Positions 1 through 24,068 of a stretch of DNA of 64,000 nt are shown one piece after another (position 1 is the first letter of the stretch; every line of letters begins with the position of its first letter). Source of the stretch: an uncultured bacterium (lineage in GTDB: Bacteria > CAYUVA01); contig CAYUVA010000004.1 in assembly GCA_964448115.1 (NCBI GenBank), positions 1 to 64,000 on the forward strand, given 5' to 3'. The notes below the pieces were generated by a model, which was not told the origin of the DNA, ran no database searches, and saw only the letters and a program-made list of their open reading frames with translations. A program made the position numbers and the translations under genes.

Positions 1-1104
1 CTCGAGCATGTCACCGAGTACGGCTATCTTTCGTCTCCCGGATCCCAGCTCAGCCATGACCTCTAAAGCGCCATTCATCGACGGCAGCGAGGCATTGTAG
101 CTATCATCGATTACCAGTATATCATTGGGCATCTGGATTATATTCAGTCTCTTCTCCTCGCGCTGGAAGCTGCGCAATCCCTTGGCTATTTCATCCGGCT
201 CTAGTCCAAGAGCAAGCGCAATAGCTATGGCACCGAGCGCGTTCTGCAACTGGAAGCGTCCCGGTACATCGATGAAGAACTCTGTAGCTTCAGCCTTTTT
301 TATCCTGAATGCGCTGCCGTGATTCACCCGCCTCGGCTCCCCAGCAAGCTGGACATCAGCATCGGCGGTAATGCCGTAGGTCATATACCTGCAAGCGCGT
401 TTTCCTTTTATGCCTGCAAGTTCCTTGTCATCGACATTTATCACTGCTATATCATCGCTGCCAAGCCTTGAGAAGAGAAGCTCCTTCTCGATAAGCACCT
501 GCTTTAAACTGCGAAAGAATTCTATATGTACCATCTGTATGTTGTTGATCAGGGCGATATGTGGCTCGACAATATCGACCAGAAGCTCCATCTCGCCGGG
601 CTTGCTGATGCCGACTTCGAGCACCGAAGCCTGGTGGCTATCGTCGAGGGTGAATACTGATATAGGCAAGCCGACCTGTCCGTTGAAGTTCTTGTATGTC
701 TGGTGAACCTTGAACCTCGTGGAGATGGCAGCAGCGGTCATGCGGGTCAGGGTGGTCTTGCCCACGCTGCCGGTTATGGCGATCTTGGGTATATCGAACT
801 GCGCATAATACCATTTGGCGAACTGCTGGAAGGCTCCGGTGGTCTCCGCAACCGTAATTATGGGGAGAGCGCCGAACCTTGTAGCATAGTTTTCGCTTAC
901 CACAGCAGCACAGGCACCGGCGCTGATAGCCTCTTCAGCAAAGGCGCTTCCATCAAGATTTAACCCATGTATGCCGATAAACAAAGCTCCGGGAGCGATG
1001 GAGCGCGAGTCGGTGCTGATCTGGGAGATCAAAATATCAGGCTTGATGTTATAGGGCTTACCACCCATAACCTCGATCACCTTACCTAGCTCGACCGGTT
1101 TCAT
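1..1104 (-). CDS. murF: UDP-N-acetylmuramoyl-tripeptide--D-alanyl-D-alanine ligase, runs off the window start
   Basis: Not in the ORF track. Manual translation from the ATG at 1104 (ATGA overlap with the murE stop) gives MKPVELGKVIEVMGG..., with the GSVGKTT P-loop, VLEVGISKPGEM and IDDSYNAS motifs of MurF. Confidence 0.93.
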   Translation of the reverse strand, partial: MKPVELGKVIEVMGGKPYNIKPDILISQISTDSRSIAPGALFIGIHGLNLDGSAFAEEAISAGACAAVVSENYATRFGALPIITVAETTGAFQQFAKWYYAQFDIPKIAITGSVGKTTLTRMTAAAISTRFKVHQTYKNFNGQVGLPISVFTLDDSHQASVLEVGISKPGEMELLVDIVEPHIALINNIQMVHIEFFRSLKQVLIEKELLFSRLGSDDIAVINVDDKELAGIKGKRACRYMTYGITADADVQLAGEPRRVNHGSAFRIKKAEATEFFIDVPGRFQLQNALGAIAIALALGLEPDEIAKGLRSFQREEKRLNIIQMPNDILVIDDSYNASLPSMNGALEVMAELGSGRRKIAVLGDMLE

Positions 1105-9414: not shown

Positions 9415-12288
9415 TTGTTGATGCGAGATATCCTTATGAGAGTTGTCCTGGTTATCATAGCCACCTTTATCGTTTCCAGCGCCTTTGCTCAGGGTAAAAT
9501 CCAGTTCTACTTCCACGACTCGCCCAAGGGAGCGGGCAGTCAGACCTGGAACGATCAATGGAGCCAAGACACGGTATATCCTTCCGGCGAGTTCATGAAC
9601 GATGAGAAGCCTTTCTTGCAAAACTCACCCAGGGTGCAGATACCGTACAATCCAGCCACTTATTCCGAGCTTTATATCTATACCGATAATGGCTTGACTT
9701 ATGATGGTGTCTTGAATGCAGTGTTGGAATATGGCAACTGGTATGTTTACCTTCTGCTCGATGCCAATGCAACCGCTTGTTGTGGGAATGTCCATGTAGT
9801 TGCCGACCTGGTTGGTCCAAACGGAGGTTTAACACCCACACCATTGCATAACATTACACCTACTTATGTGCCAACCCCTGGTCAGTTGCAATATGCACAG
9901 ATTCCGCTGGGACCGATAACCAAACAGGCACACAATCGGCGCATCAGGCTCAAGATCTGGGCAGAGGGCACGCCATCACCGGCAAAGGACAAGCTATACT
10001 TGGTTTGGGATGATGATTTGCAATCGCCTCCGCCGGAGCCGACTCCCTGGAGGGCTTCCAGGCTCGATACCCACTGGATTTATACCTTCACTCCCACCTA
10101 CACGCCGACCACGACCCCGACCACGACCCCGTCTCGGACTCCAACATCGACCTACACACCGAGCTTGACGCCGACAATGACCAATACGCCGACTCTGACG
10201 CCGACAGTAACGCTCACTCCGACCTCAAGCCCCTCGGCGACCCCAACCTATACCCCGACCCAGACCAGCACCCTGACTCCAACAAACACCGGCTTGCCGA
10301 CCTGGACACCGACCGCTACGCCGACCTATACGACCACGCGGACTCCGACCTTCACATCGACTTACACACCAACCAGCACTAAGACTCTTACCCCGACGCA
10401 AACCCCGACCTTCACTGCAACGCCGACCAGCACATCCACATCAGTGCCGACCGCCTCACCGACAGCAACCTATACGGAGACTCCAACCCGAACGCCTACC
10501 AATACCTTCACCCCACTACCCAGCCATACGCCGAGCAATACACCGACAGCCTCATGGACTGCAACGCCAACGCCCTGTTCGGAAGTTGACCCCAGCGAGC
10601 CAAACGATCAAAATATATATGCCAAGCAGGTCCATGATAATACTGGCTTTCCAATGTTAAACTATGTCTGCTACTATAATGATATCGACTGGTGGTACTT
10701 CATGGGCAACCAGAATGCTGGCTTTGCCATCCAGACTGCGCATCTGTCGCCACTAGTCGATACTTACCTGACCATTTACAAGAGCGATGCCCTGACCATT
10801 CTTTGCGAGAACGATGATGATCCCAATCGAGCAGGCACAGTGGATGAACTTGCCTCCTTTTGCTTTATTGTACCTCCATCGTCAGGTACGGAGCTTTATT
10901 ATATAAAACTGCGCAATATGAACAGCAATTGGGGTCCAAATGCTTATTATGATCTCCAGGTATCGCTTATTACCCACACGCCGACCGCGACCTGGACCGC
11001 GAGCCACACGCCAACGATCACCTTTACGCCGACGGATACACCCACGGCAACAGCAACCCCTACCGGCACAAACACGGCCACGCCGACGCCGAGTTCCACC
11101 CCGACCATTACTCCTCCCCCGGCGCCTGAGATTTATGGACTTAATCCATATTCACCAGGTAATAGCGTAATGGTGCAATGGGAGCCGGTTCCTTCGGGCT
11201 GGGAGTATGATGCGCAGTGCTCGCTATCGGCTAGCTTCCCCGATGCACAATCGACTCCCTGTGCCTGGTCGGAGTTTACCTATTGCACTTTCTACGATCT
11301 TGAGAATGGAAAGAAGTATTACTTCAGAGCCAGGGCTCGAAACATATTGGCAACGCCGGGACCGTTCAGCCAGGTAGCAAGCACGCGCATGGATGCAAGC
11401 ACTCCCTCGGTAACCATCTGCGATCCACCACAGACGCCTATCTCCACCAACCAGGAACAGATCACCATCAGATATTCTCTTACCGAGTACCCCTTGGTGC
11501 AGCCTCCACAGGGCATCTATCCCTCCGGGATAGCCAATGTGAAGCTGTACTATAAGAAGCAGTTCCAGGCTTACCAATTATATACCGCAGCCGTTTATGT
11601 GGATACCACCCCGTGCCCGGGACCCACTCCTAACGATCCCTTTGAGAACGGCATCCTGTTCAACTTCGAGCCTGGTGGCTATGGACCATATTACTTCTAT
11701 ACCATCGGTGTTGACCGAGCGGGCAACAGCGAGACCTTCGACGGCACTCCCGAAGCGGTGATCATATACAGCGAAGATACGCCTACCCCGACAAATACAC
11801 CAACGGCGACCAACACAAGGACGCCATCCCCGACCCATACGGCGACCCCGACCAATACACCGCTACATTCCTACACGCCGACCAGAACGCCGACCATAAC
11901 CAATACGCCTTTACCATCAAGTACTCCCACGCCGACACAGCCGACCAATACGCCCACCTCTACTCCCACACAGACGCCGATTCCACCATCAATCTACATA
12001 GGCGGTTACATGTCTTCGCGCATAACTATTGCTGATGGGGGGCAGATGTCGCTATTAGCCTATGTCCACAAGGGGGATGCCGAGGTGAGCTATGTGGAAG
12101 TATATTTCGACGGCGCCCCAACCGGATTATACCTGGTGCCGGACCCGGTGAATGATGGGATCTACCAGTTCGTAACCAGCTTACCACCGGGGATACCGCA
12201 AGGCGGATATCCGCTTGAGCTTAAAGCTATCGATCTTGATTCCATCGGCAGCCACCTATGGCCCTACCTCGAGGTTACGGAGTATTAG
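9415..12288 (+). CDS. Large exported protein with Thr-Pro linkers, PPC-like and FN3-like domains, and a shared C-terminal domain
   Basis: Signal peptide ending SSAFA; three long TPT tracts; EPND...DIDWWYF motif; FN3-like YYFRARARN; C-terminus ending WPYLEV. Confidence 0.85.
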   Translation: MLMRDILMRVVLVIIATFIVSSAFAQGKIQFYFHDSPKGAGSQTWNDQWSQDTVYPSGEFMNDEKPFLQNSPRVQIPYNPATYSELYIYTDNGLTYDGVLNAVLEYGNWYVYLLLDANATACCGNVHVVADLVGPNGGLTPTPLHNITPTYVPTPGQLQYAQIPLGPITKQAHNRRIRLKIWAEGTPSPAKDKLYLVWDDDLQSPPPEPTPWRASRLDTHWIYTFTPTYTPTTTPTTTPSRTPTSTYTPSLTPTMTNTPTLTPTVTLTPTSSPSATPTYTPTQTSTLTPTNTGLPTWTPTATPTYTTTRTPTFTSTYTPTSTKTLTPTQTPTFTATPTSTSTSVPTASPTATYTETPTRTPTNTFTPLPSHTPSNTPTASWTATPTPCSEVDPSEPNDQNIYAKQVHDNTGFPMLNYVCYYNDIDWWYFMGNQNAGFAIQTAHLSPLVDTYLTIYKSDALTILCENDDDPNRAGTVDELASFCFIVPPSSGTELYYIKLRNMNSNWGPNAYYDLQVSLITHTPTATWTASHTPTITFTPTDTPTATATPTGTNTATPTPSSTPTITPPPAPEIYGLNPYSPGNSVMVQWEPVPSGWEYDAQCSLSASFPDAQSTPCAWSEFTYCTFYDLENGKKYYFRARARNILATPGPFSQVASTRMDASTPSVTICDPPQTPISTNQEQITIRYSLTEYPLVQPPQGIYPSGIANVKLYYKKQFQAYQLYTAAVYVDTTPCPGPTPNDPFENGILFNFEPGGYGPYYFYTIGVDRAGNSETFDGTPEAVIIYSEDTPTPTNTPTATNTRTPSPTHTATPTNTPLHSYTPTRTPTITNTPLPSSTPTPTQPTNTPTSTPTQTPIPPSIYIGGYMSSRITIADGGQMSLLAYVHKGDAEVSYVEVYFDGAPTGLYLVPDPVNDGIYQFVTSLPPGIPQGGYPLELKAIDLDSIGSHLWPYLEVTEY
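10081..10575 (+). repeat. Thr-Pro low-complexity coding tract (further tracts at ~10970-11125, ~11778-11982 and ~16672-16758)
   Basis: Degenerate TPTxT repeats in the protein with diverged synonymous codons. Confidence 0.9.
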
Positions 12289-12318
12289 CAAAGGCGAGAA
12301 CCTCAATCCGCATCATGT

Positions 12319-14301
12319 TCATAGCCTGGTGTCCAGGATCTCCAGTATCCCGTTGTTCCTCCAGTCGAAATGTCCTGGAAATCCCTTTATAACTTCACCT
12401 TGATCGGTTATTAGCACCGAGTATGGCAGGACCTCACCTTGTACAATGCCTTTGAGCAGGGTGAACTCGCGGTCGATGTAGCACTTGATACCGAGCTGAT
12501 CCTTTAACTGTTGCAGCCTTTGCTTTACGATCTCAGGAACCAGGTATATCACCTGCATATCAAGCTCAGAATAGCGATTGGTGAAATCGATCACATTTTT
12601 TAGCGTTCGTTGGCATAAGGGATCACCTGGATGCCAAAAATAAAGCAGTAATATCTGTGAGTGCCCTGTTATCGACCTTAACCGGGGATAGCGGTTCCGT
12701 TCCCAGTCATGAATCCGATGGGAGATTATCCTTTTTCTGTCCATCGGCTTAAACGGCTTCAGAATGCTCTCTTTCAGACGCTGAGCCTGTTGGTATATTG
12801 TTATCGCGTCCGGTATCGGGTCATTGAGCAAGGGATGATTCAGGTAGTAATGTAAGCTCTGGTAAGCCTCATCGTAGTTTCCATATATATAGTTGATCCT
12901 TCCCAGCCAATAATAGATCTGCGGATTATAAGCATAGAATCCCAGATCCCTCGATTTAGCAAGCATCTGAAGCGCATGGTAATTCTGTCCGAGCTTGTAC
13001 AGGCTCAAACCCAACCAATAATAGCCTGCTCCGTAATCCGTATCTGCTGAAGATTCAAGCTCGATGACCGTCTCCAGGATGTTTTTCGCCTTCTCGTAGA
13101 GACGCAGCTTGAAGTTGCTCATGCCAATCTTCAATAACGTATCCCTGTCTGCCATGGTGATATATTTAGGATCCAGGCTGTTGTTTAAGTGAACCGCAGC
13201 CTCTACGAACTCGCCTAGCTCATAATAAAGCTCTCCCTTGAAGCGTTCAGCGGATCGATAGTCAAGTTCTATCTGTAATCCCTGTATAAAGAGCTTGGCA
13301 TTCTTGGTGCCTAGATATCGCTTGATCAGCCGGCAGATTACCTGGGCGTGTTCCAGGGGGAATCTTATCCTTGTTCCCAACTCGAATAATCCCTTAGCCT
13401 CGGTGTCGATCAACGCTTGCACCATCCCCTTATGATCCAGGCCATAATATGCATCCAACGCAAAATAGAGATCCAGCAAGCCTTTATTCTCTGGGCAATC
13501 GATTATACTTCTGCTTAGATCAGAGACCATCTGGAAGCGATCCATCATGGTTGCAGCATAACAAAGATCCTCGATCAACATGATCGTATCCGGCAAGCAC
13601 TTAAGCAAGAAGGTCATATCCTGCAAGCCAGCAAATCCAAGGCTATATGCCTCTTGATGCTTGTTGGTCAGGTTAAGCAGATGGATCAGTTGTAGGGTTT
13701 GTGCAGGCTCATCCTTGGGGCACTCCAAGAAGAGCTTTCCAGCGATGGTGGAAGCTACATGGAACTTTCCTGGCAGCCTAAGACATGCCCTGGCAAAGAT
13801 CAGCGCATGCTCAAGGCGGCTGCAAAGCTCCAGTGAACTCTCCATGTACCTTAGCCTGTTATATATGTAAAACCAGTTCGGTTCTCTATGTAGATACTCT
13901 GTCTGTGCCTGCTGATTGATGTAGTTATCGATCTGAGCCTTCACCTTCTCGAACATATCCTTTTTCCTGCCCTCGAATCGGTGGCTCTGAATCTTCTGGT
14001 AGTAATTCACCACCCCATTCAGATCCCCCATCTGACTGGCAGCGTAAGCCAGGTACAGGTATGGCTGGTAATCAGGATCCTCGAGGCGCTGTTGCCGTGT
14101 ACCTTCATCAGCCTCGTATTTGGCAATCGAGTTCTCCAGGTAGTACCTGCCATTGCGGTAATCTCCATGCTCCACAGCCTTGACGCCCTTTTTATAATTG
14201 TATTGCCAGCCGTTGCCGAGCATCATAGCACAACCGCTAAGGGCGATTAGACAAGCAGCTATAAAGATGATTTCGAGTTTAGCCTTTTTAAAAAACCACA
14301 T
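12319..14301 (-). CDS. TPR-repeat lipoprotein with a C-terminal thioredoxin-like fold lacking CxxC
   Basis: Probable start MWFFKK (14301) with lipobox LSGC; TPR motifs (YYWLG); C-terminal LLYFWHPGDPLC...LPYSVLI. The ORF track starts at 14364. Confidence 0.75.
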   Translation of the reverse strand: MWFFKKAKLEIIFIAACLIALSGCAMMLGNGWQYNYKKGVKAVEHGDYRNGRYYLENSIAKYEADEGTRQQRLEDPDYQPYLYLAYAASQMGDLNGVVNYYQKIQSHRFEGRKKDMFEKVKAQIDNYINQQAQTEYLHREPNWFYIYNRLRYMESSLELCSRLEHALIFARACLRLPGKFHVASTIAGKLFLECPKDEPAQTLQLIHLLNLTNKHQEAYSLGFAGLQDMTFLLKCLPDTIMLIEDLCYAATMMDRFQMVSDLSRSIIDCPENKGLLDLYFALDAYYGLDHKGMVQALIDTEAKGLFELGTRIRFPLEHAQVICRLIKRYLGTKNAKLFIQGLQIELDYRSAERFKGELYYELGEFVEAAVHLNNSLDPKYITMADRDTLLKIGMSNFKLRLYEKAKNILETVIELESSADTDYGAGYYWLGLSLYKLGQNYHALQMLAKSRDLGFYAYNPQIYYWLGRINYIYGNYDEAYQSLHYYLNHPLLNDPIPDAITIYQQAQRLKESILKPFKPMDRKRIISHRIHDWERNRYPRLRSITGHSQILLLYFWHPGDPLCQRTLKNVIDFTNRYSELDMQVIYLVPEIVKQRLQQLKDQLGIKCYIDREFTLLKGIVQGEVLPYSVLITDQGEVIKGFPGHFDWRNNGILEILDTRL

Positions 14302-14436
14302 TGAAAGCCTGCTTTGGATTATTTCATTGCCAATACTGCAACATTTTAACCTAAAAGTAAACATCCAGGAAATGGATAAAGGAATTCTATTAACTTTGCA
14401 TCATGATACCTGCTGTGGTATTTACTAGGTGGAATT

Positions 14437-15291
14437 ATGAAAATAGGCAATTACACTGCTATCAGCGCCATAATAGTGCTTACAATCGTTGCCTTGTCTC
14501 TTATCGCTGCCACGGAACTTGATTGTCGAGATCGCTATTCAAAAGGAGATATCCGGCACCTGGACGAGAACCGGATGCTGGAGCTGGTGAACAAGGAGAG
14601 GCTGAAAAGGGGTCTCGATACGCTTGCTTGGAACGGCGAGCTAACCAGGGTTGCCAGGGGGCATGCAACCGATATGTTCAAGAACGACTTCTTCGATCAC
14701 AAGTCAGCCACCGATGGCAGCGAGCCTGCCCATCGCATAGCACGAAGTGCCATCTATGCAAGCAAGACCGCTGAGAACATAGCCCTTGACCGCAATGTCG
14801 ATAACGCACATCAAGGGCTGATGAACAGCCCTGGGCACAGGAAAAATATCCTCGATCCCGAATTCACCCACATCGGTATCGGCATCATCGACGGCGGTCT
14901 GAAGGGGATCTATGTCTGCCAGAACTTCGCCAAGCTCATCCCTGTATCAAGCCCCGGCGAGATACAGCTTACCTTGTATTCGAGGCTCCGCAATCATGTT
15001 CTCCCCATGCCTTTGCATCTTAATAGGAGGCTGAATGACCTGGCTGCCCGGCATACAGAGACCATGATCGAGCAGGATCGCGTCTTCTCGCCCAATCTCA
15101 AGGAGATGATCGGCGGATTCTCGGAGATGAGCGTGTTCGTGGCTACCACCGACCAGCCGGATCAACCGAATGATTCGATGCTCACCGATCTCTCACGCTA
15201 CCGGGAGGTAGGAATAGGGGTAAGACTGGCAAAGACCAGAAACAATCCCAATGGCATATACTTCCTGACCGTGCTATTAGCGAACAAATAA
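14437..15291 (+). CDS. Exported CAP/SCP-domain protein
   Basis: Motifs LVNKER, ARGHATDM, AENIA and LMNSPGHRKNIL; signal peptide. Confidence 0.9.
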   Translation: MKIGNYTAISAIIVLTIVALSLIAATELDCRDRYSKGDIRHLDENRMLELVNKERLKRGLDTLAWNGELTRVARGHATDMFKNDFFDHKSATDGSEPAHRIARSAIYASKTAENIALDRNVDNAHQGLMNSPGHRKNILDPEFTHIGIGIIDGGLKGIYVCQNFAKLIPVSSPGEIQLTLYSRLRNHVLPMPLHLNRRLNDLAARHTETMIEQDRVFSPNLKEMIGGFSEMSVFVATTDQPDQPNDSMLTDLSRYREVGIGVRLAKTRNNPNGIYFLTVLLANK

Positions 15292-15379
15292 GGTTCTTTC
15301 CTTTCTTTACACCAATAGCGAGCATAACCAGGCGCGGCTGTGCTTGTATTTCATAGATATTGAAATATAATCAAGGAAT

Positions 15380-17077
15380 ATGATGGATAATAGCGTGATC
15401 TCAATAGGCATTAAGAATCGATGGGTGTATGCTTTCATATTGGTATCTTGCTGTTTCCTCATTTCGCCCTTATCCTCGGAGCCGCGCTATACCGATGATG
15501 CAGATGCGGTCTTTTGGTTCATGGTCATAAGCGATGTCCACTGCGGCGCCCTGGAGTTTGGGCGCAATGTCCCTGTGGAGAACCTAGGCTGGGCTTTAGG
15601 GGAGGCTAATCGTGCAATCGATCCTGAATTTATAGTCAATTGCGGCGACCTTACAGACTCAACCAATGGAGGGATACTCCCCGCTCAGGGTCCCTTCCAG
15701 GAGGAGTGGGACATGTACAGTGGTGTCTTATCCGAGTATGGGATGAGACATGATTTTTATTACGATCTGCCAGGCAACCACGATGCATACAACGACTTTG
15801 GTCTCACATACTACCTGGCAAACTCGATGCAGGGACAGGCGACCGGCAAGCTGCAATATGCATGGGAGCAAACCTATGATTTCGGCAGATACAGCTTCTT
15901 TGCCGTAAACACAGCCGATCGTACCGGCGGGAGCTGGGGTAGCAATCGCCCAGGGCTTAGACCTTCCGAGCTTCAGGACTTCGAGGCTTTGCTTTACACC
16001 CACCGGCTGGGAAACCTGAGAATAGTATTCGGACATCATCCGATCAGCTTCTTCAAGGATGGAGCTGCCGAGTTTACCGATCTGCTGCACACTTATAATG
16101 TTAATGCTTATATATACGGGCATACGCACCTCAATTTCGTATCCTGGATGGATGGCATCCTGAGCTTTAACATCTCGTCATTATCCCAGGATCTCGATCG
16201 TAGATACGCGGTTTTTGCCATCGATAACGATGCTATAAGCTATGGAACCAAAGGTGTCTGGGAATTGGGGCTTCTGATTGTAACCGCGCCCTGGAATGTT
16301 GACCTGGCTGGTGGCAATCCCCATGCCTACCTTGTCTCAAGGAACTCGCCGAGCAACCCAGTTCGCGCCCTGTTTTTCGATAGCAATCCCCCCCGGTCGG
16401 TTCAGTATAGCCTCAATCACGGGTTATGGCAGCCGATGGAGGAGGTCAGAGAGCACCTATACCAGGGCTGGTTCGATGCCCGTCAGCTCGATAGTGGAAG
16501 GCAACGACTACAGGTCAAGGCAATTACATCGGAGAGCGAGGTCATAAAGGTAGAGACCTGGTTCGAGACCGGAATCTGCCAGTGCGATGATGGGATCGAT
16601 AACAATCAGGATGGCTTCACCGATTACCCAGACGATCCCAACTGCTATAGCCGGCACGATCCCTTGGAGGATCCAACGATAACGGCGACTCCTACTGCCA
16701 CCCCCTACCGATCGCCAACCCCGACGGTTACCCCTACCAGCACCGCTACCCGGATACCGAATCAGGCGCCGAAGATCGTGGCTGGAGGCTACCTGGGCAC
16801 CGAGCTGGATGGCAAGAACGGCGGCGAGCTTGCATTGGGCGCCCTGGTCAGCGATCCTGACGGAATGGAGGATGTTTACGCTGTCCAGGTCTTCTACATG
16901 GGCAATGGGACCGGGTTGTACCTGGAGCCGGATCCATATTCTGCGGGATATTTCGAGCTGAGAGCGATCATCGCGCCGGCAGCCCTGCCACCATCCAAGC
17001 ACTTGCTTGAGCTTGTGGCCGAAGATAGAAAACATGAAGCAAGCGAGCTTTTCCCCTACCTGATAGTCGATGAATAA
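15380..17077 (+). CDS. Exported calcineurin-like metallophosphoesterase with a Thr-Pro linker and the shared C-terminal domain
   Basis: Motifs SDVH, GDLTD, PGNHD, GHHP and GHTH; Asp-rich CDDGIDNNQDGFTD repeat; C-terminus ending FPYLIV. Confidence 0.88.
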   Translation: MMDNSVISIGIKNRWVYAFILVSCCFLISPLSSEPRYTDDADAVFWFMVISDVHCGALEFGRNVPVENLGWALGEANRAIDPEFIVNCGDLTDSTNGGILPAQGPFQEEWDMYSGVLSEYGMRHDFYYDLPGNHDAYNDFGLTYYLANSMQGQATGKLQYAWEQTYDFGRYSFFAVNTADRTGGSWGSNRPGLRPSELQDFEALLYTHRLGNLRIVFGHHPISFFKDGAAEFTDLLHTYNVNAYIYGHTHLNFVSWMDGILSFNISSLSQDLDRRYAVFAIDNDAISYGTKGVWELGLLIVTAPWNVDLAGGNPHAYLVSRNSPSNPVRALFFDSNPPRSVQYSLNHGLWQPMEEVREHLYQGWFDARQLDSGRQRLQVKAITSESEVIKVETWFETGICQCDDGIDNNQDGFTDYPDDPNCYSRHDPLEDPTITATPTATPYRSPTPTVTPTSTATRIPNQAPKIVAGGYLGTELDGKNGGELALGALVSDPDGMEDVYAVQVFYMGNGTGLYLEPDPYSAGYFELRAIIAPAALPPSKHLLELVAEDRKHEASELFPYLIVDE

Positions 17078-18611
17078 AGCGCCTGCGAGCCTTCACAGCA
17101 ATAAAACATTCACGATATCCTTATGGATATTCACCTTTGCCTTGAGCTTCTTTGTTCTTATCGCCGGCGGGCACCTTTACGGACAAGATGGGGTAGCGAT
17201 GTACCTGATGGCTTGCTCGTTGCTGGATCGCCTCGATTTCGATATTCCACCTGATGCCAACACCTTTGGCGCAGTATCGGGGGCAGAAGGCAGGCTGTAT
17301 GCCCCCTTTGGGATCGGGCAGCCGATAAGCGCAGCGCCGCTTTTGCTAGTCGGCAGGATCCTCAAGCGGATCTATGATATCGACTATCTCCCCTCGTTTT
17401 TCGCATCCTTTTTCAACTCCTTGATCAGCGCCCTTTTAATCATGGCTGTCTATCGATTTCTCGGCTTGATAGGGATCACATCGCGGCATCGTATCCTGGT
17501 ATCGGTCTCGCTGGCGATGACTACCATAATCGCTCCCTACTCCAAGTACTTTTACTCGGAGCCTTACTTTGCCTTGATGCTAATCTCCTCGTCCCTCATG
17601 TCGTATCGCTTTAAGCGAAGTGGTCGTCTCCTAGATATCATCACAGCCGGCAGTGCGCTTGGAATCGCCATATATATTCGCCCTATCGGCATCCTTTTTA
17701 CGCCAGCTTTCCTTGTCTATCTTTTGCTTATCCTGCATAGGTTGTCCAAATCGCATTCGAGCCTGCTCAAGCCCATTTTGGGCTTCATCATCCCGGTTTC
17801 AACCTCCGTGGCAGTGTACCTGATGTACAACTATCATCGATTTGGCTCACTGCTCGATAGCGGTTATCATCTACTTCCCGACGGCAGCCTGCGCGGGTTC
17901 ACACAGCCGCTCTGGTACGGCTTGAGCGTGCTTCTTATAAGCCCCGGCAAGAGCATCTTCATATACTCACCGCTGGTGGTGCTTGTTTTCTTCGCATTTC
18001 GCAGCTTTCACCGCCGCCATAAGGAGGAGTCCTGGCATTTCATTGCGCTCTACCTGCTATTTATGTTGACCTACGGCAGGTGGTGCCGCCCCGAGGGTGG
18101 CTATACCTACGGCGGCAGGTTCCTCTTGCCTTTGGTGCCTTACCTGGCGGTTCATATCGCCCCCTGGCTATCCGAGAACCTATCTAGTAAGCGAATTGCA
18201 GCCCTGTTTAGTGTACTGTTATTAGCTGGCTTTCTGGTTCAGCTCTTGGGCATCACAGTTAATTTTAGCGAGATCATCGCTCGTAATGAGGCTGCCTACT
18301 ATAATCGAGCAGAGGGGAGGTATGATCTATCTTTTCAGCCCTTCAGCGCGCATATCAGCAGCCTGTTGGATAAGTTATTCCCCCTTGCAGACAACCTTAG
18401 GGCGCGAGATCACCACACCATTGCCCTAACCAGGACGCTCGATGTGGTGAACTATCCCCTGTGGAGCGATTGCCTTGACCTTTGGTTTCTTCACCTAATC
18501 AAGGATAAGGCACTCAAGCCTCCAGCCTTTATATTGCTCTGTCTTGTTGCTATCTTGTTTACGGTATCCGCGGCAAAGCTGATAACACAGATGTTTAGAC
18601 CAGCTAACTAA
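17070..18611 (+). CDS. Polytopic membrane protein, probable GT-C fold (PMT/ArnT-like) glycosyltransferase
   Basis: Many TM segments, an acidic first loop (GQDG), and SEP, RP and YGGRFLLP motifs. Overlaps the upstream gene by 8 nt. Confidence 0.65.
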   Translation: MNKAPASLHSNKTFTISLWIFTFALSFFVLIAGGHLYGQDGVAMYLMACSLLDRLDFDIPPDANTFGAVSGAEGRLYAPFGIGQPISAAPLLLVGRILKRIYDIDYLPSFFASFFNSLISALLIMAVYRFLGLIGITSRHRILVSVSLAMTTIIAPYSKYFYSEPYFALMLISSSLMSYRFKRSGRLLDIITAGSALGIAIYIRPIGILFTPAFLVYLLLILHRLSKSHSSLLKPILGFIIPVSTSVAVYLMYNYHRFGSLLDSGYHLLPDGSLRGFTQPLWYGLSVLLISPGKSIFIYSPLVVLVFFAFRSFHRRHKEESWHFIALYLLFMLTYGRWCRPEGGYTYGGRFLLPLVPYLAVHIAPWLSENLSSKRIAALFSVLLLAGFLVQLLGITVNFSEIIARNEAAYYNRAEGRYDLSFQPFSAHISSLLDKLFPLADNLRARDHHTIALTRTLDVVNYPLWSDCLDLWFLHLIKDKALKPPAFILLCLVAILFTVSAAKLITQMFRPAN

Positions 18612-21517: not shown

Positions 21518-24019
21518 TTATGCCTTGCGCCTCTTTGGAAAAACCAGATAGGAGACAAATAACAGAAGGCAAGGAATAACCGCTAGTCCGAGTGTCAGAT
21601 CGCCGTTGACCATAAGCGCTGCCAGCGAGATCAATGGGATAAGCACCAGGCGTGTGAAGCCCTGTAATAGCACATTGCCTGATATCATCCTTGCGATGGG
21701 AGGGCTAATGCGATAATAGGCTTCAACTAGCAGCCTGCCGGGGAGATTGGTTAACAGGAACCTATCGCGGAAAGCCTCGAGCAGTACCACATCCTCAGCC
21801 AACTTGGAGCCATAAGCAGCGGTAGCGATGAAACAACCGCTTTGTTCCTTTCGTTCTCCCCTTACGATCTTATAAGTTCCCCACATCGACTCAGCTATGT
21901 TATTCTGGGTAAGGATCTCATTGGGATCCTTGTAAACAGCTACGAATATAGGGAATATCTTCTCATCCGGGTCATCATCATCCCAGTTTATCAGTATATC
22001 GGTGGTATCCCAGTCAACGGAGACGGTATGCCAGTGCACCGGTTCATTGAATTTCTTGCCTGGCAGCGAGGGGATCTGCACCTGGGCGAATGGTTTGCCC
22101 AGGTTGGGATCATCGCCTCGGTAGGCGGGCGTGCGGTCATAATAGAAGCTCACCGTTGTCGGCTCCGAAGCGATCTGCCCCAGGTTAGCTATTTTTGCGG
22201 TTATGCGCACTATGTCCCCGGCTACAGCCTGCTGCTTGTCAAATTTGATCTTGTGGGGATAGATGCCCAAATCAGGCTGGCGGGTGCGGGAGCGACCTTG
22301 AATATCGACCACCGACTCGTCTATGGGTGTATTCTCCTGCACATATTCGAGTAGGTTTACCCACTCTTTCTTCCCGGAGTGCACCCTGGTTCCACCGACC
22401 AGCGGAGCCACTATCCCAGCCATTACGCTGGTCATGGTAACCTTGAACTTCTGATCCGGTGGATACTCGGTCAGCGGAGTGCCGTGTAGATAAATCTCCT
22501 CCATCTTTATCCTCCGCCACTGTTCGCCCTGGAAGAAGTCCGCATCCGGCTTGGTCAAATCATAAACGAACTCCACGGTGTTGGAGACCTGGAAGTGCCC
22601 CATCTTCATGAACTCGGTGCAACTCGCCTCAAGGAGCAGCTTGAGCTTGTCCCTGGGAACGGTGATGATATCGACCTCGGAAGCGCCGCCATCTTCGGGA
22701 TCGAAGCCCTGGGGAAGCACCTGGTTGATCTCGGCAAAGGTGAGCGTCCCCGGCCACAGGCTCTGCCGCAAGCTCCCATCGTTCTCCATTGCCATATCAA
22801 GCCCCTCTCCGATAGCGGGGCGGGTCATGGCATCGCATACCAGGTTACCGAGCAGGTTCTCCAGCCCCTTGTCCTGGTCGCTACCGCCGGATAGGTAAAG
22901 CCAACTCTCGCCAGCAATATCGCTGAAGGGGTCGGTTGATAATCCTGGATACCAGGTTGCCATGTGGTCCTGGATCTGTAGCTTCCACTCCCCGAGGCGG
23001 CGGTCTATCTCCTGCACCGATTCATAACTGTAATCGATAGGCAAGGTGGTATCGTTGTGGTAAAGCTTGAAGCTAACGATATCGATCGCTTTGCCGGGCT
23101 GATAATCGAGGATGACCTTTGAGATCCACTGCTGGTTATCACCGGAGCGCACCAGGTAGGTTATCCAGTTGTCCGGGCCAACGAACGGTATCGGCTGATT
23201 GTACTTGTTATGGCTGTGCCCGTCGAAGATGATATCTATGCCCTTGACCGCCCTTGCCACCTGTACGATATCCCTCTCGTACCAGTCCCAGCGGTAGTAG
23301 TTGAAGTTGGAGCCACCGACATGGGTAACCGCGATGACCAGGTCGCACTGCTCCTGATTGCGCAAAAAGTCCACCATCTCCTTGGCAGCCTCGATGGTTG
23401 TTGCCATGTCATCCCCCACGGTCATGCCATCAGCCTTCATGTCCATGGAGTACCAGTCGGTCCAGGGAGTGATCAGTCCGAAGAAGCCTATCTTAAGCCC
23501 GCTTTGGGTGTTGATGGTGTATTTCCTAATGTAATCCCCTTCCAGCTCGGCGGCGGGTTTACCTTCGCGGAAGGTTACATTTGCCGCCAGGGTGAAGAAC
23601 TCGAAGCCGGTCTGTTCTCGTGCATAATCAATCGCCTCTTTCAGCACATCAGCCCCGAGCTGGCAGTCATGATTGCCTAACGCAAATGCCACGGGTTCAA
23701 GTATGGCATACACGGTTAGATCCCAGCCACCCAAGCCAGCCTCGAAGAACAAGCTACCCTCGAACGCATCACCGGAGTGGATAAAGAAGGTGTTCTCCTC
23801 TCCGTACTCTGCACGGGCACTTTCAATAAGGGTTGCGAGGCGCAGGCTGCTGCCGAACTGCGGATTACCCTCGGAGTCCAAGGGACCCCAGTCCATTATG
23901 TGCCCATGCGTGTCATTGACATGAACAAAGGCGAGCTGCTTGGAGTAGCTTGCGCCCGGCAGCGATGCAAGCCCAAGTGCAATGAAAAGCGCTATGATCG
24001 AAAACGCTGGTCGTCTCAT
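21518..24019 (-). CDS. Exported 5'-nucleotidase/metallophosphatase with CARDB-like and CFI-box-CTERM domains
   Basis: Motifs NDTHG, SGDAF, GNHD and GHSH; 5'-nucleotidase C-domain (GNLVCDA, NDGSLR); [11 protein letters not shown] followed by a TM segment and basic tail. Probable ATG at 24019 after GAGG. Confidence 0.9.
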
Positions 24020-24068
24020 AATACCAACCTCGTTCTTATTGTGATCCCCAAAACGCACCTAGCAGCCA

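Follow-up and report, generated by a model that had tools for sequence, protein, structure and literature searches.

We analyzed a stretch of 64,000 nucleotides from an uncultured bacterium (positions 1 to 64,000 of contig CAYUVA010000004.1, assembly GCA_964448115.1; this whole stretch is referred to below as the window), in which two exported proteins end, after Thr-Pro linkers, with homologous domains of about 105 residues that we call the tail domain. We put at roughly 0.55 the probability that the tail domain is a non-covalent docking tag that pairs by terminal-strand exchange and likely does the work of the cohesin-dockerin system. Each copy would be an immunoglobulin (Ig)-like sandwich that lacks its final strand and is filled in by the WPYL strand from another copy, and the partner of a tail domain is likely another tail domain. 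Proteins that bear it (carriers) would be exported to the periplasm by Sec and from there take a general route outward, six secretins being present in the genome. Carriers with a single copy would find their partners in trans, be it a second single-copy carrier, a tandem carrier or a cargo-free stand-alone protein, while tandems would either satisfy themselves or serve as branch points; hydrolases and adhesins would thereby be gathered in a mixed assembly, extracellular or at the surface, in the role of cohesin-dockerin.

The features of the two carriers are as follows; HMM stands for hidden Markov model and pLDDT for predicted local distance difference test.

9415..12288, + strand: carrier 1, 957 aa, with a signal peptide, unassigned domains between long Thr-Pro linkers and a C-terminal tail domain

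9415..9489, + strand: signal peptide of carrier 1, predicted from the translation to span about 25 aa

11779..11982, + strand: Thr-Pro linker of carrier 1, about 68 aa in the translation, preceding the tail domain

11983..12288, + strand: tail domain, window copy 1, 101 aa, of the single terminal type and without the acidic loop (HMM score 103 bits); predicted to be all-beta and Ig-like from a model (pLDDT 93.9) and structural alignments

12259..12276, + strand: terminal WPYL strand of window copy 1, including the near-invariant Pro; predicted to be the swapped strand

15380..17077, + strand: carrier 2, 565 aa, with a signal peptide, a calcineurin-like phosphoesterase, further domains, a Thr-Pro linker and a C-terminal tail domain

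15515..16129, + strand: metallophosphoesterase cargo domain of carrier 2, residues 46-250 (Metallophos PF00149, 49 bits)

16673..16759, + strand: Thr-Pro linker of carrier 2, about 29 aa in the translation, preceding the tail domain

16760..17077, + strand: tail domain, window copy 2, 105 aa, of the single terminal type and without the acidic loop (HMM score 90 bits)

17051..17068, + strand: terminal FPYL strand of window copy 2; predicted to be the swapped strand

The two window copies share 38 identities over 102 positions (37%; E 2e-17), close to the one-third estimated by eye in the preliminary description of this DNA, and all six conserved blocks listed there can be seen in the pairwise alignment. 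As it had also said, both proteins are signal-peptide-like at the N-terminus and have no C-terminal transmembrane (TM) segment. An HMM was built from the window pair and iterated over all six-frame open reading frames (ORFs) of the genome, which is 94% complete at 3.98 Mb. It converged immediately, with 199 copies in 163 ORFs, a count that includes a few contig-end fragments and short doubtful ORFs. Thus, the many paralogues anticipated earlier do exist, and the case held to speak against a sorting tag, only two copies in the genome, is not what was found. One terminal copy is present in 114 carriers, a terminal pair in 29 and four copies in one, so that 144 of 163 carriers end with the tail domain. 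The remaining 19, with one copy (15 ORFs) or a pair (4 ORFs), continue for more than 15 aa beyond the last copy; in five of them the tail domain directly follows the signal peptide, e.g., on a GH31-like glycosidase. There are 35 tandem pairs in all, one of them at C29:27735-28484. The expectation that the domain would always be C-terminal was therefore not borne out: since tandem, internal and N-terminal copies exist, the tail domain is not a strict C-terminal signal, and such positions suit docking. The Thr-Pro linker, which precedes both window copies, is common in the family without being universal, Pro and Thr making up at least 50% of the preceding 40 aa in 67 of 114 single terminal copies.

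Paralogues are on average 31% identical, with both ends near-fixed: the domain starts with conserved Pro (95%), Gly (99%, alignment column 17) and Tyr (88%) and finishes with Trp (80%, column 167), Pro (98%, column 168), Tyr (76%) and Leu (90%). It is strongly acidic (mean net charge −8), and about half of the copies, neither window copy among them, carry an acidic loop that likely binds Ca2+. By a lenient hydrophobicity criterion, 147 of 151 carriers are signal-peptide-like vs. 1065 of 2396 other ORFs, and a TM segment beyond the N-terminus was found in one carrier of 151. Of the 65 ORFs that are 1000 aa or longer, signal-peptide-like and free of TM segments, 56 bear the tail domain, as do all six C25 peptidases of the genome, and family scans of relatives and homologues add S8, M14 and C13 peptidases and FG-GAP, PKD, FN3 and lamin-tail proteins to the cargo. 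No other shared tail of this kind was found among the non-carriers of this genome, where the large clusters, judged by eye, are TPR, radical-SAM, glycosyltransferase and kinase ends.

The model of a single tail domain (pLDDT 93.9) has six strands and no helix, and its last 12 residues, the WPYL segment, form isolated bridges only. Structural alignment of this monomer retrieved only generic Ig and fibronectin type III (FnIII) chains, none with Z of 8 or more; the best was 6fhn_A (Z 7.8, root-mean-square deviation (rmsd) 2.7, 86 residues aligned). Single Ig/FnIII chains align mostly to monomer residues 1-95, and the last strand of the targets is left out; for 9kvu_A, the aligned chain range is 5..88 (Z 7.3, rmsd 2.7, 82 aligned). 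In the model of one tandem (predicted template modelling score 0.88), the two copies are joined by a linker helix (115-135), and both terminal segments are now strands (98-102 and 246-249). Single Ig chains of about 90 residues align across the range 1..250 of this model over about 90 residues and regain their last strand: the 9kvu_A range becomes 3..94 (Z 6.2, rmsd 2.6, 90 aligned), and that of 6k7o_A widens from 3..89 to 2..95. The simplest reading of the predicted structure is that the terminal strand of the second copy completes the first copy. Foldseek returned no match at E ≤ 0.001 for the monomer and 45 matches for the tandem, those listed being generic two-Ig chains with TMq of 0.35 or less. 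The preliminary description had proposed a structure prediction with Foldseek as a check and named a generic Ig-like module as an outcome that would count against a sorting tag; the Foldseek search with the monomer was silent at this threshold, and the predicted generic Ig/FnIII sandwich touches that objection.

Covariation between the copies was measured as mutual information on 152 non-redundant tandems with 200 permutations and a block chosen beforehand. The signal between the terminal strand of the first copy and the A' strand of the second was reached by none of the 200 permutations, and its best pair took rank 2 when all 10,290 inter-copy pairs were ordered; the two cis blocks were negative. 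These data weakly support the swap reciprocal to that of the model, with the terminal strand of the first copy lying against the second. Strand-swapped dimers are known for Ig and cadherin domains. Strand exchange is also used by type V pilins such as Mfa1, according to the excerpted text of PMC13655056. The likeness to both lies in a terminal beta-strand that completes a neighbor's sandwich, which is predicted here within a tandem, in a likely Ca2+ site and in a candidate protease site ahead of the second copy. Unlike them, the tail domain is a 105-aa module that tags about 160 unrelated proteins, its exchange is predicted to be reciprocal and not to build a head-to-tail filament, and its stand-alone form lacks a lipoprotein signal by inspection.

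This stand-alone form, a copy without cargo, was present in all 12 genomes inspected (the window genome and 11 further positive genomes). It is a short ORF (in the window genome, its domain is at C4:99820-100407) with an N-terminal hydrophobic stretch, 30-70 variable residues that include an invariant Trp, and a loop-bearing tail domain; the stand-alones are 55% identical to one another. Both the acidic loop and the upstream Trp occur in 12 of 12 stand-alones, in 33 and 24 of 35 second tandem copies and in 54 and 15 of 110 single copies, respectively. Since second copies have the loop and the upstream Trp, unlike singles, a tandem would have arisen by fusion of a cargo-type domain with a module like the stand-alone, made up of a Trp-bearing helix and a domain whose acidic loop likely binds Ca2+. 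In a midpoint-rooted tree of 207 domains, the 11 stand-alones from outside the window genome form one clade (support 0.96), and the stand-alone of the window genome falls into another clade (support 0.84), where 11 of the 13 tips are terminal second copies. Just ahead of 22 of 35 second tandem copies stands a Lys with a small or acidic residue after it, compared with 3 of 35 first copies and with 7 of the 114 singles; it is a possible protease site and is not consistent in the stand-alones of the other phylum. A conserved 449-aa protein (L044:8106-9452, + strand; no Pfam match at 1e-7) is encoded beside the stand-alone gene in 8 of the 11 other genomes. It gave no BLAST hit in the window genome, and we therefore regard its position as synteny and not as a sign of shared machinery.

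G035, a second genome, of which about 2.0 of 2.6 Mb was sampled, has four copies of the tail domain only. Here, the position after the linker is taken by type I dockerin (14 proteins) or by an unnamed domain of about 115 aa that we call domain B (42 proteins). When the bodies of 146 carriers from the window genome were compared with the sampled G035 ORFs, 25 matched over at least 250 aa: 13 matches bear dockerin (6 distinct proteins), 7 bear domain B (6 distinct), 1 bears the tail domain and 4 bear none of these, and three of these four are one ORF cut at the locus edge where dockerin begins. PF00404 exceeds its cut-off in L130:12123 and L171:1574. Relatives of the window phosphoesterase are likewise varied. 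Among 120 listed of 274 found, the tail domain is present on the window protein itself and on one other; the other listed relatives have varied tails, including Cys-TM tails (one scoring 19.6 bits vs. the MYXO-CTERM cut-off of 20), and one has a tail that is dockerin-like by inspection. Since matching bodies and relatives carry varied tails, the slot after the linker behaves as an interchangeable attachment position.

The likeness of the tail domain to cohesin-dockerin (PF00963 and PF00404) is that of a small module after a Thr-Pro linker, mostly terminal, on diverse secreted enzymes without a membrane anchor, and the G035 counterparts of carriers bear dockerin in the very same position. The two differ in that there is no sequence match and that the tail domain is predicted to be all-beta, whereas dockerin is a helical, duplicated EF-hand; in that the tail domain is predicted to pair with itself and not with a separate cohesin; and in that no many-copy scaffold was found in the window genome, where an ORF has at most four copies. 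The window genome has 2 cohesin matches against 199 tail domains, and 2 dockerin matches, none of them on a carrier; G035 has 21 dockerin and 6 cohesin matches. Among the G035 cohesins, one has a TM tail of the IPTL-like type, two stand on a single protein that ends in domain B, and another forms a tandem with dockerin; the cohesin-dockerin network of G035 lies on proteases and other non-cellulase cargo (L101:4365-5240, + strand; L130:4600-7806, − strand; L098:306-4100, + strand). Domain B, for example in L157:16368-17180 (− strand) and in 41 other G035 ORFs, is C-terminal after Thr-Pro linkers, and the members that were scanned match neither Pfam nor NCBIfam. Homology of domain B to the tail domain was considered and rejected (hhalign probability 0.4%).

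In docking of another kind, the partner would be domain B, a surface protein, or lipopolysaccharide (LPS) or glycan bound via the acidic loop, and self-pairing would be secondary or a modelling artefact. We consider this unlikely, even though the tail domain fills the slot of dockerins, which bind a different module, and never stands on one protein with B or dockerin among the sets searched. In the phylum of genome G022 described below, domain B is present in the same pattern as the tail domain (11 of 14 genomes, with between 29 and 142 matches in each), and copy numbers look reciprocal, with 199 tail domains and 5 weak B matches in the window genome and 4 tail domains and at least 42 B proteins in G035. 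However, the common pattern may reflect a single ancestral gain, because the genomes are kin, and the query of the B search also contained a Thr-Pro linker. A mean net charge of −8 would hardly favor direct binding to LPS unless a metal is involved, and the tandem model and covariation both indicate contact of like with like.

The preliminary description had read the tails as a secretion or surface-attachment tag. The attachment, or assembly, part of this is what we favor, and it is the secretion part that fits poorly with tandem, internal and N-terminal copies. There is little probability, in our estimate, that the tail domain is a signal of the C-terminal domain (CTD) kind used in type IX secretion (T9SS), read by an outer-membrane translocon (either an unrecognized one or that of type II secretion) and perhaps cleaved off. 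The terminal position in 144 of 163 carriers, the hold of the domain on large exported ORFs (56 of 65) and its presence on all six C25 peptidases, where it takes the place that T9SS CTDs occupy on gingipains, would all suit such a signal, as would the Lys motif before 22 of 35 second copies vs. 7 of 114 singles. The bacterium is diderm and has 6 secretin and 4 Omp85-family matches (on contigs C1, C6, C14, C15 and C40, and C2, C9, C25 and C43), and PorV-family matches occur, although weakly: all 13 fall below the cut-off, and of the FadL/TraF-like barrels concerned, 12 in number, most look FadL-like by eye. Five N-terminal copies, 14 more carriers with long C-terminal extensions and 35 tandem pairs are difficult to reconcile with a signal of this kind, and so are the matching G035 proteins, which lack the tail domain and have dockerin instead. 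No neighbor family is enriched beside carriers (best p 0.011 among 92 families). The 12 barrels are rejected as a receptor: five lie within 1.5 kb of a carrier, roughly the number expected from carrier density by a rough estimate. SprA gave no match in this genome, which is 94% complete, and the control was also silent. A screen of genes shared with G035 yielded 196 candidates, and Pfam scans of 90 proteins, mostly from this list, revealed no translocon and a few proteins without a family. The cognate receptor or translocon postulated earlier was thus found by none of the neighbor, family and shared-gene screens.

The remaining possibility, that the tail domain is a generic Ig-like and partly Ca2+-binding spacer or stabilizer spread by domain shuffling with no docking role, appears to us quite improbable. 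It would account for the generic Ig/FnIII matches (best Z 7.8), for the nearest Atlas neighbors, which are Big_7 and Big_9 clusters at 0.90-0.91, and for the resemblance of the core to the repeats of long choice-of-anchor X proteins (P0066, P0143, P0149). Those proteins match positions 19-100 only, without either conserved end, whereas in the tail domain Gly17, Pro168 and Trp167 are held at 99%, 98% and 80% in spite of a mean paralogue identity of 31%. Nor would a spacer be expected to occur in one or two copies per protein (four in a single ORF) or to be kept as a cargo-free gene in 12 of 12 genomes.

Several points weigh against docking by strand exchange as well. The swap was read from alignment ranges and DSSP strings and not from coordinates, and the prediction concerns a single tandem chain, not a contact of two proteins. 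The covariation signal uses the same family as the structural model, rests on few sequences with rare residues and was assessed by permutations that ignore relatedness; the reciprocal block was not significant (reached by 41 of 200 permutations). The model and the covariation point to opposite directions of swap, and neither is proof. As to the origin of tandems, the stand-alone of the window genome does not group with the 11 others in the tree, and stand-alones are divided equally between the first-copy and second-copy models (6 of 12). A slot shared with dockerin means interchangeability, not the same mechanism. Pairing of any copy with any other leaves specificity and anchoring without explanation: a further TM segment was seen in 1 of 151 carriers, and no IPTL-like TM-tailed protein carries the tail domain. 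Finally, the C-terminal bias (144 of 163) and the presence on 56 of 65 large exported-looking proteins fit a secretion signal too.

A bolder version of docking by strand exchange, which we put forward tentatively and hold to be doubtful, is that the tail domain is a universal like-with-like clip that builds a scaffold-free, cellulosome-like extracellular meshwork and has displaced cohesin-dockerin in this lineage. The meshwork would consist of about 160 hydrolases and adhesins, tandem branch-point proteins and the conserved cargo-free subunit, and a Lys-directed cut before second copies, possibly made by the genome's own C25 peptidases, would open self-paired tandems. The known means of tethering many secreted proteins are a sortase, a dedicated translocon or two matched parts, as in cohesin-dockerin. 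An Ig tag that needs one part only, swaps strands and sits on most large exported proteins of a cell would, if real, be a different solution to tethering; it would explain the organization of surface enzymes in two uncultured lineages and could yield a new protein-assembly tag. The tail slot is shown to switch between three unrelated modules, and models are supplied for two unnamed, heavily expanded domain families.

For the window copies and 42 members of the family there was no whole-domain match in Pfam or NCBIfam, and with carrier 1 as the query both libraries were silent at E ≤ 0.1. No match was found among PDB sequences (best E 1.1 and 0.067), and no RNA holder was listed. TIGR04183 and PF18962 (T9SS CTD), PF00404 (dockerin) and Pfam SLH likewise gave no match in the window copies and 42 members; TIGR04183 was silent across the whole genome, as was its control query, the two genomic dockerin matches lie on non-carrier ORFs, and the monomer model is without the helices of an SLH domain. 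Signals of the sortase or exosortase type (LPXTG, PEP-CTERM, IPTL-, CFI-box-CTERM) would need a motif, a TM helix and a basic tail at the C-terminus; a TM segment beyond the N-terminus is seen in 1 of 151 carriers, and no carrier belongs to the TM-tailed set of this genome. The tail had not been recognized as T9SS CTD, PEP-CTERM, LPXTG, SLH or dockerin when first described, in agreement with the lack of any profile or motif match here. No title among the 50 VIA structural matches listed names a cohesin or a T9SS CTD, although chains of either kind may still be there. The T9SS CTD resembles the tail domain in its arrangement, a signal peptide, variable cargo and an Ig-like terminal domain on most large exported proteins, C25 peptidases included. 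It differs in that the tail domain is also N-terminal, internal and tandem and matches no profile, and in that the genome has no SprA match (the control being silent) and no PorV over the cut-off.

The one partial match concerns the optional acidic loop. NF041940 (choice-of-anchor X, a model of 37 positions) matches this loop in 16 of 42 members at E ≤ 0.01 and exceeds its cut-off of 25 bits in 7 of 20 mostly loop-bearing members, via the loop only; neither window copy is matched. The match spans only 18-28 of about 105 tail-domain residues, and choice-of-anchor X repeat proteins are without the conserved N-terminal GY and C-terminal WPYL ends. The tail domain therefore fails membership of the T9SS CTD, dockerin, SLH and sortase-type classes and has only a loop in common with choice-of-anchor X.

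The distribution of the tail domain is narrow, as had been proposed. Among 30 genomes sampled at domain level, only G022 matched; in the phylum of G022, 11 of 14 genomes match at E ≤ 1e-25 and the other three show nothing at E ≤ 0.001. A search of 400 other genomes retrieved three matches at E ≤ 1e-31, all in this phylum, at a strict threshold that weak relatives would escape. Of 1.84 billion representatives, 1143 score E ≤ 0.001; the 150 of these that were listed include the three long repeat proteins that match the core only, and one core-only cluster bears the name choice-of-anchor X. With an alignment of stand-alones as the query, 8 of 15 matched loci are titled as candidate division CSSED10-310, which excerpts of PMC8248873 describe as a sister phylum of Acidobacteriota that is predicted to be Gram-negative. 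These excerpts make no mention of the tail domain, and no description of it was found in the open-access full-text literature, supplements excluded.

The genome also has a short exosortase-like gene (C2:147677-148240), which adjoins one of about eight TM-tailed proteins with an IPTL-like motif, a TM helix and a basic tail (e.g., C2:144699-147587 and C6:6209-11707). The exosortase-like protein was rejected as the sorting enzyme of carriers, this separate target set being without the tail domain. Its G035 orthologue is closest to archaeosortase B and XrtH, below the cut-off.

In five carriers (C53:14181-17885, C25:34138-37008, C29:36661-38775, C16:63840-66227 and C1:76593-78365), an FN3-like domain is split in two, with its first strand at the extreme C-terminus beyond the tail domain and a linker and the rest upstream. 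An unsplit version is found in C17:9853-11679. The arrangement is reminiscent of a circular permutation or of strand complementation.

Relatives of the window phosphoesterase include two tail clusters without an NCBIfam match: P0166, P0177 and related proteins (26), the shown members of which end in a short Pro-x-Leu-rich motif, and P0170 and related proteins (40), with an unassigned tail of about 90 aa. Elsewhere in the window, a 5'-nucleotidase-like exported protein (21518-24058, − strand) ends in CFI-box-CTERM (NF041770, 87 bits against a cut-off of 40), a second sorting signal in the window and one of the TM type. The stop of carrier 2 is overlapped by a membrane glycosyltransferase-like gene (17070-18611, + strand; PMT_2 E 8e-4, NF047440 below cut-off), whose product might glycosylate Thr-Pro linkers.

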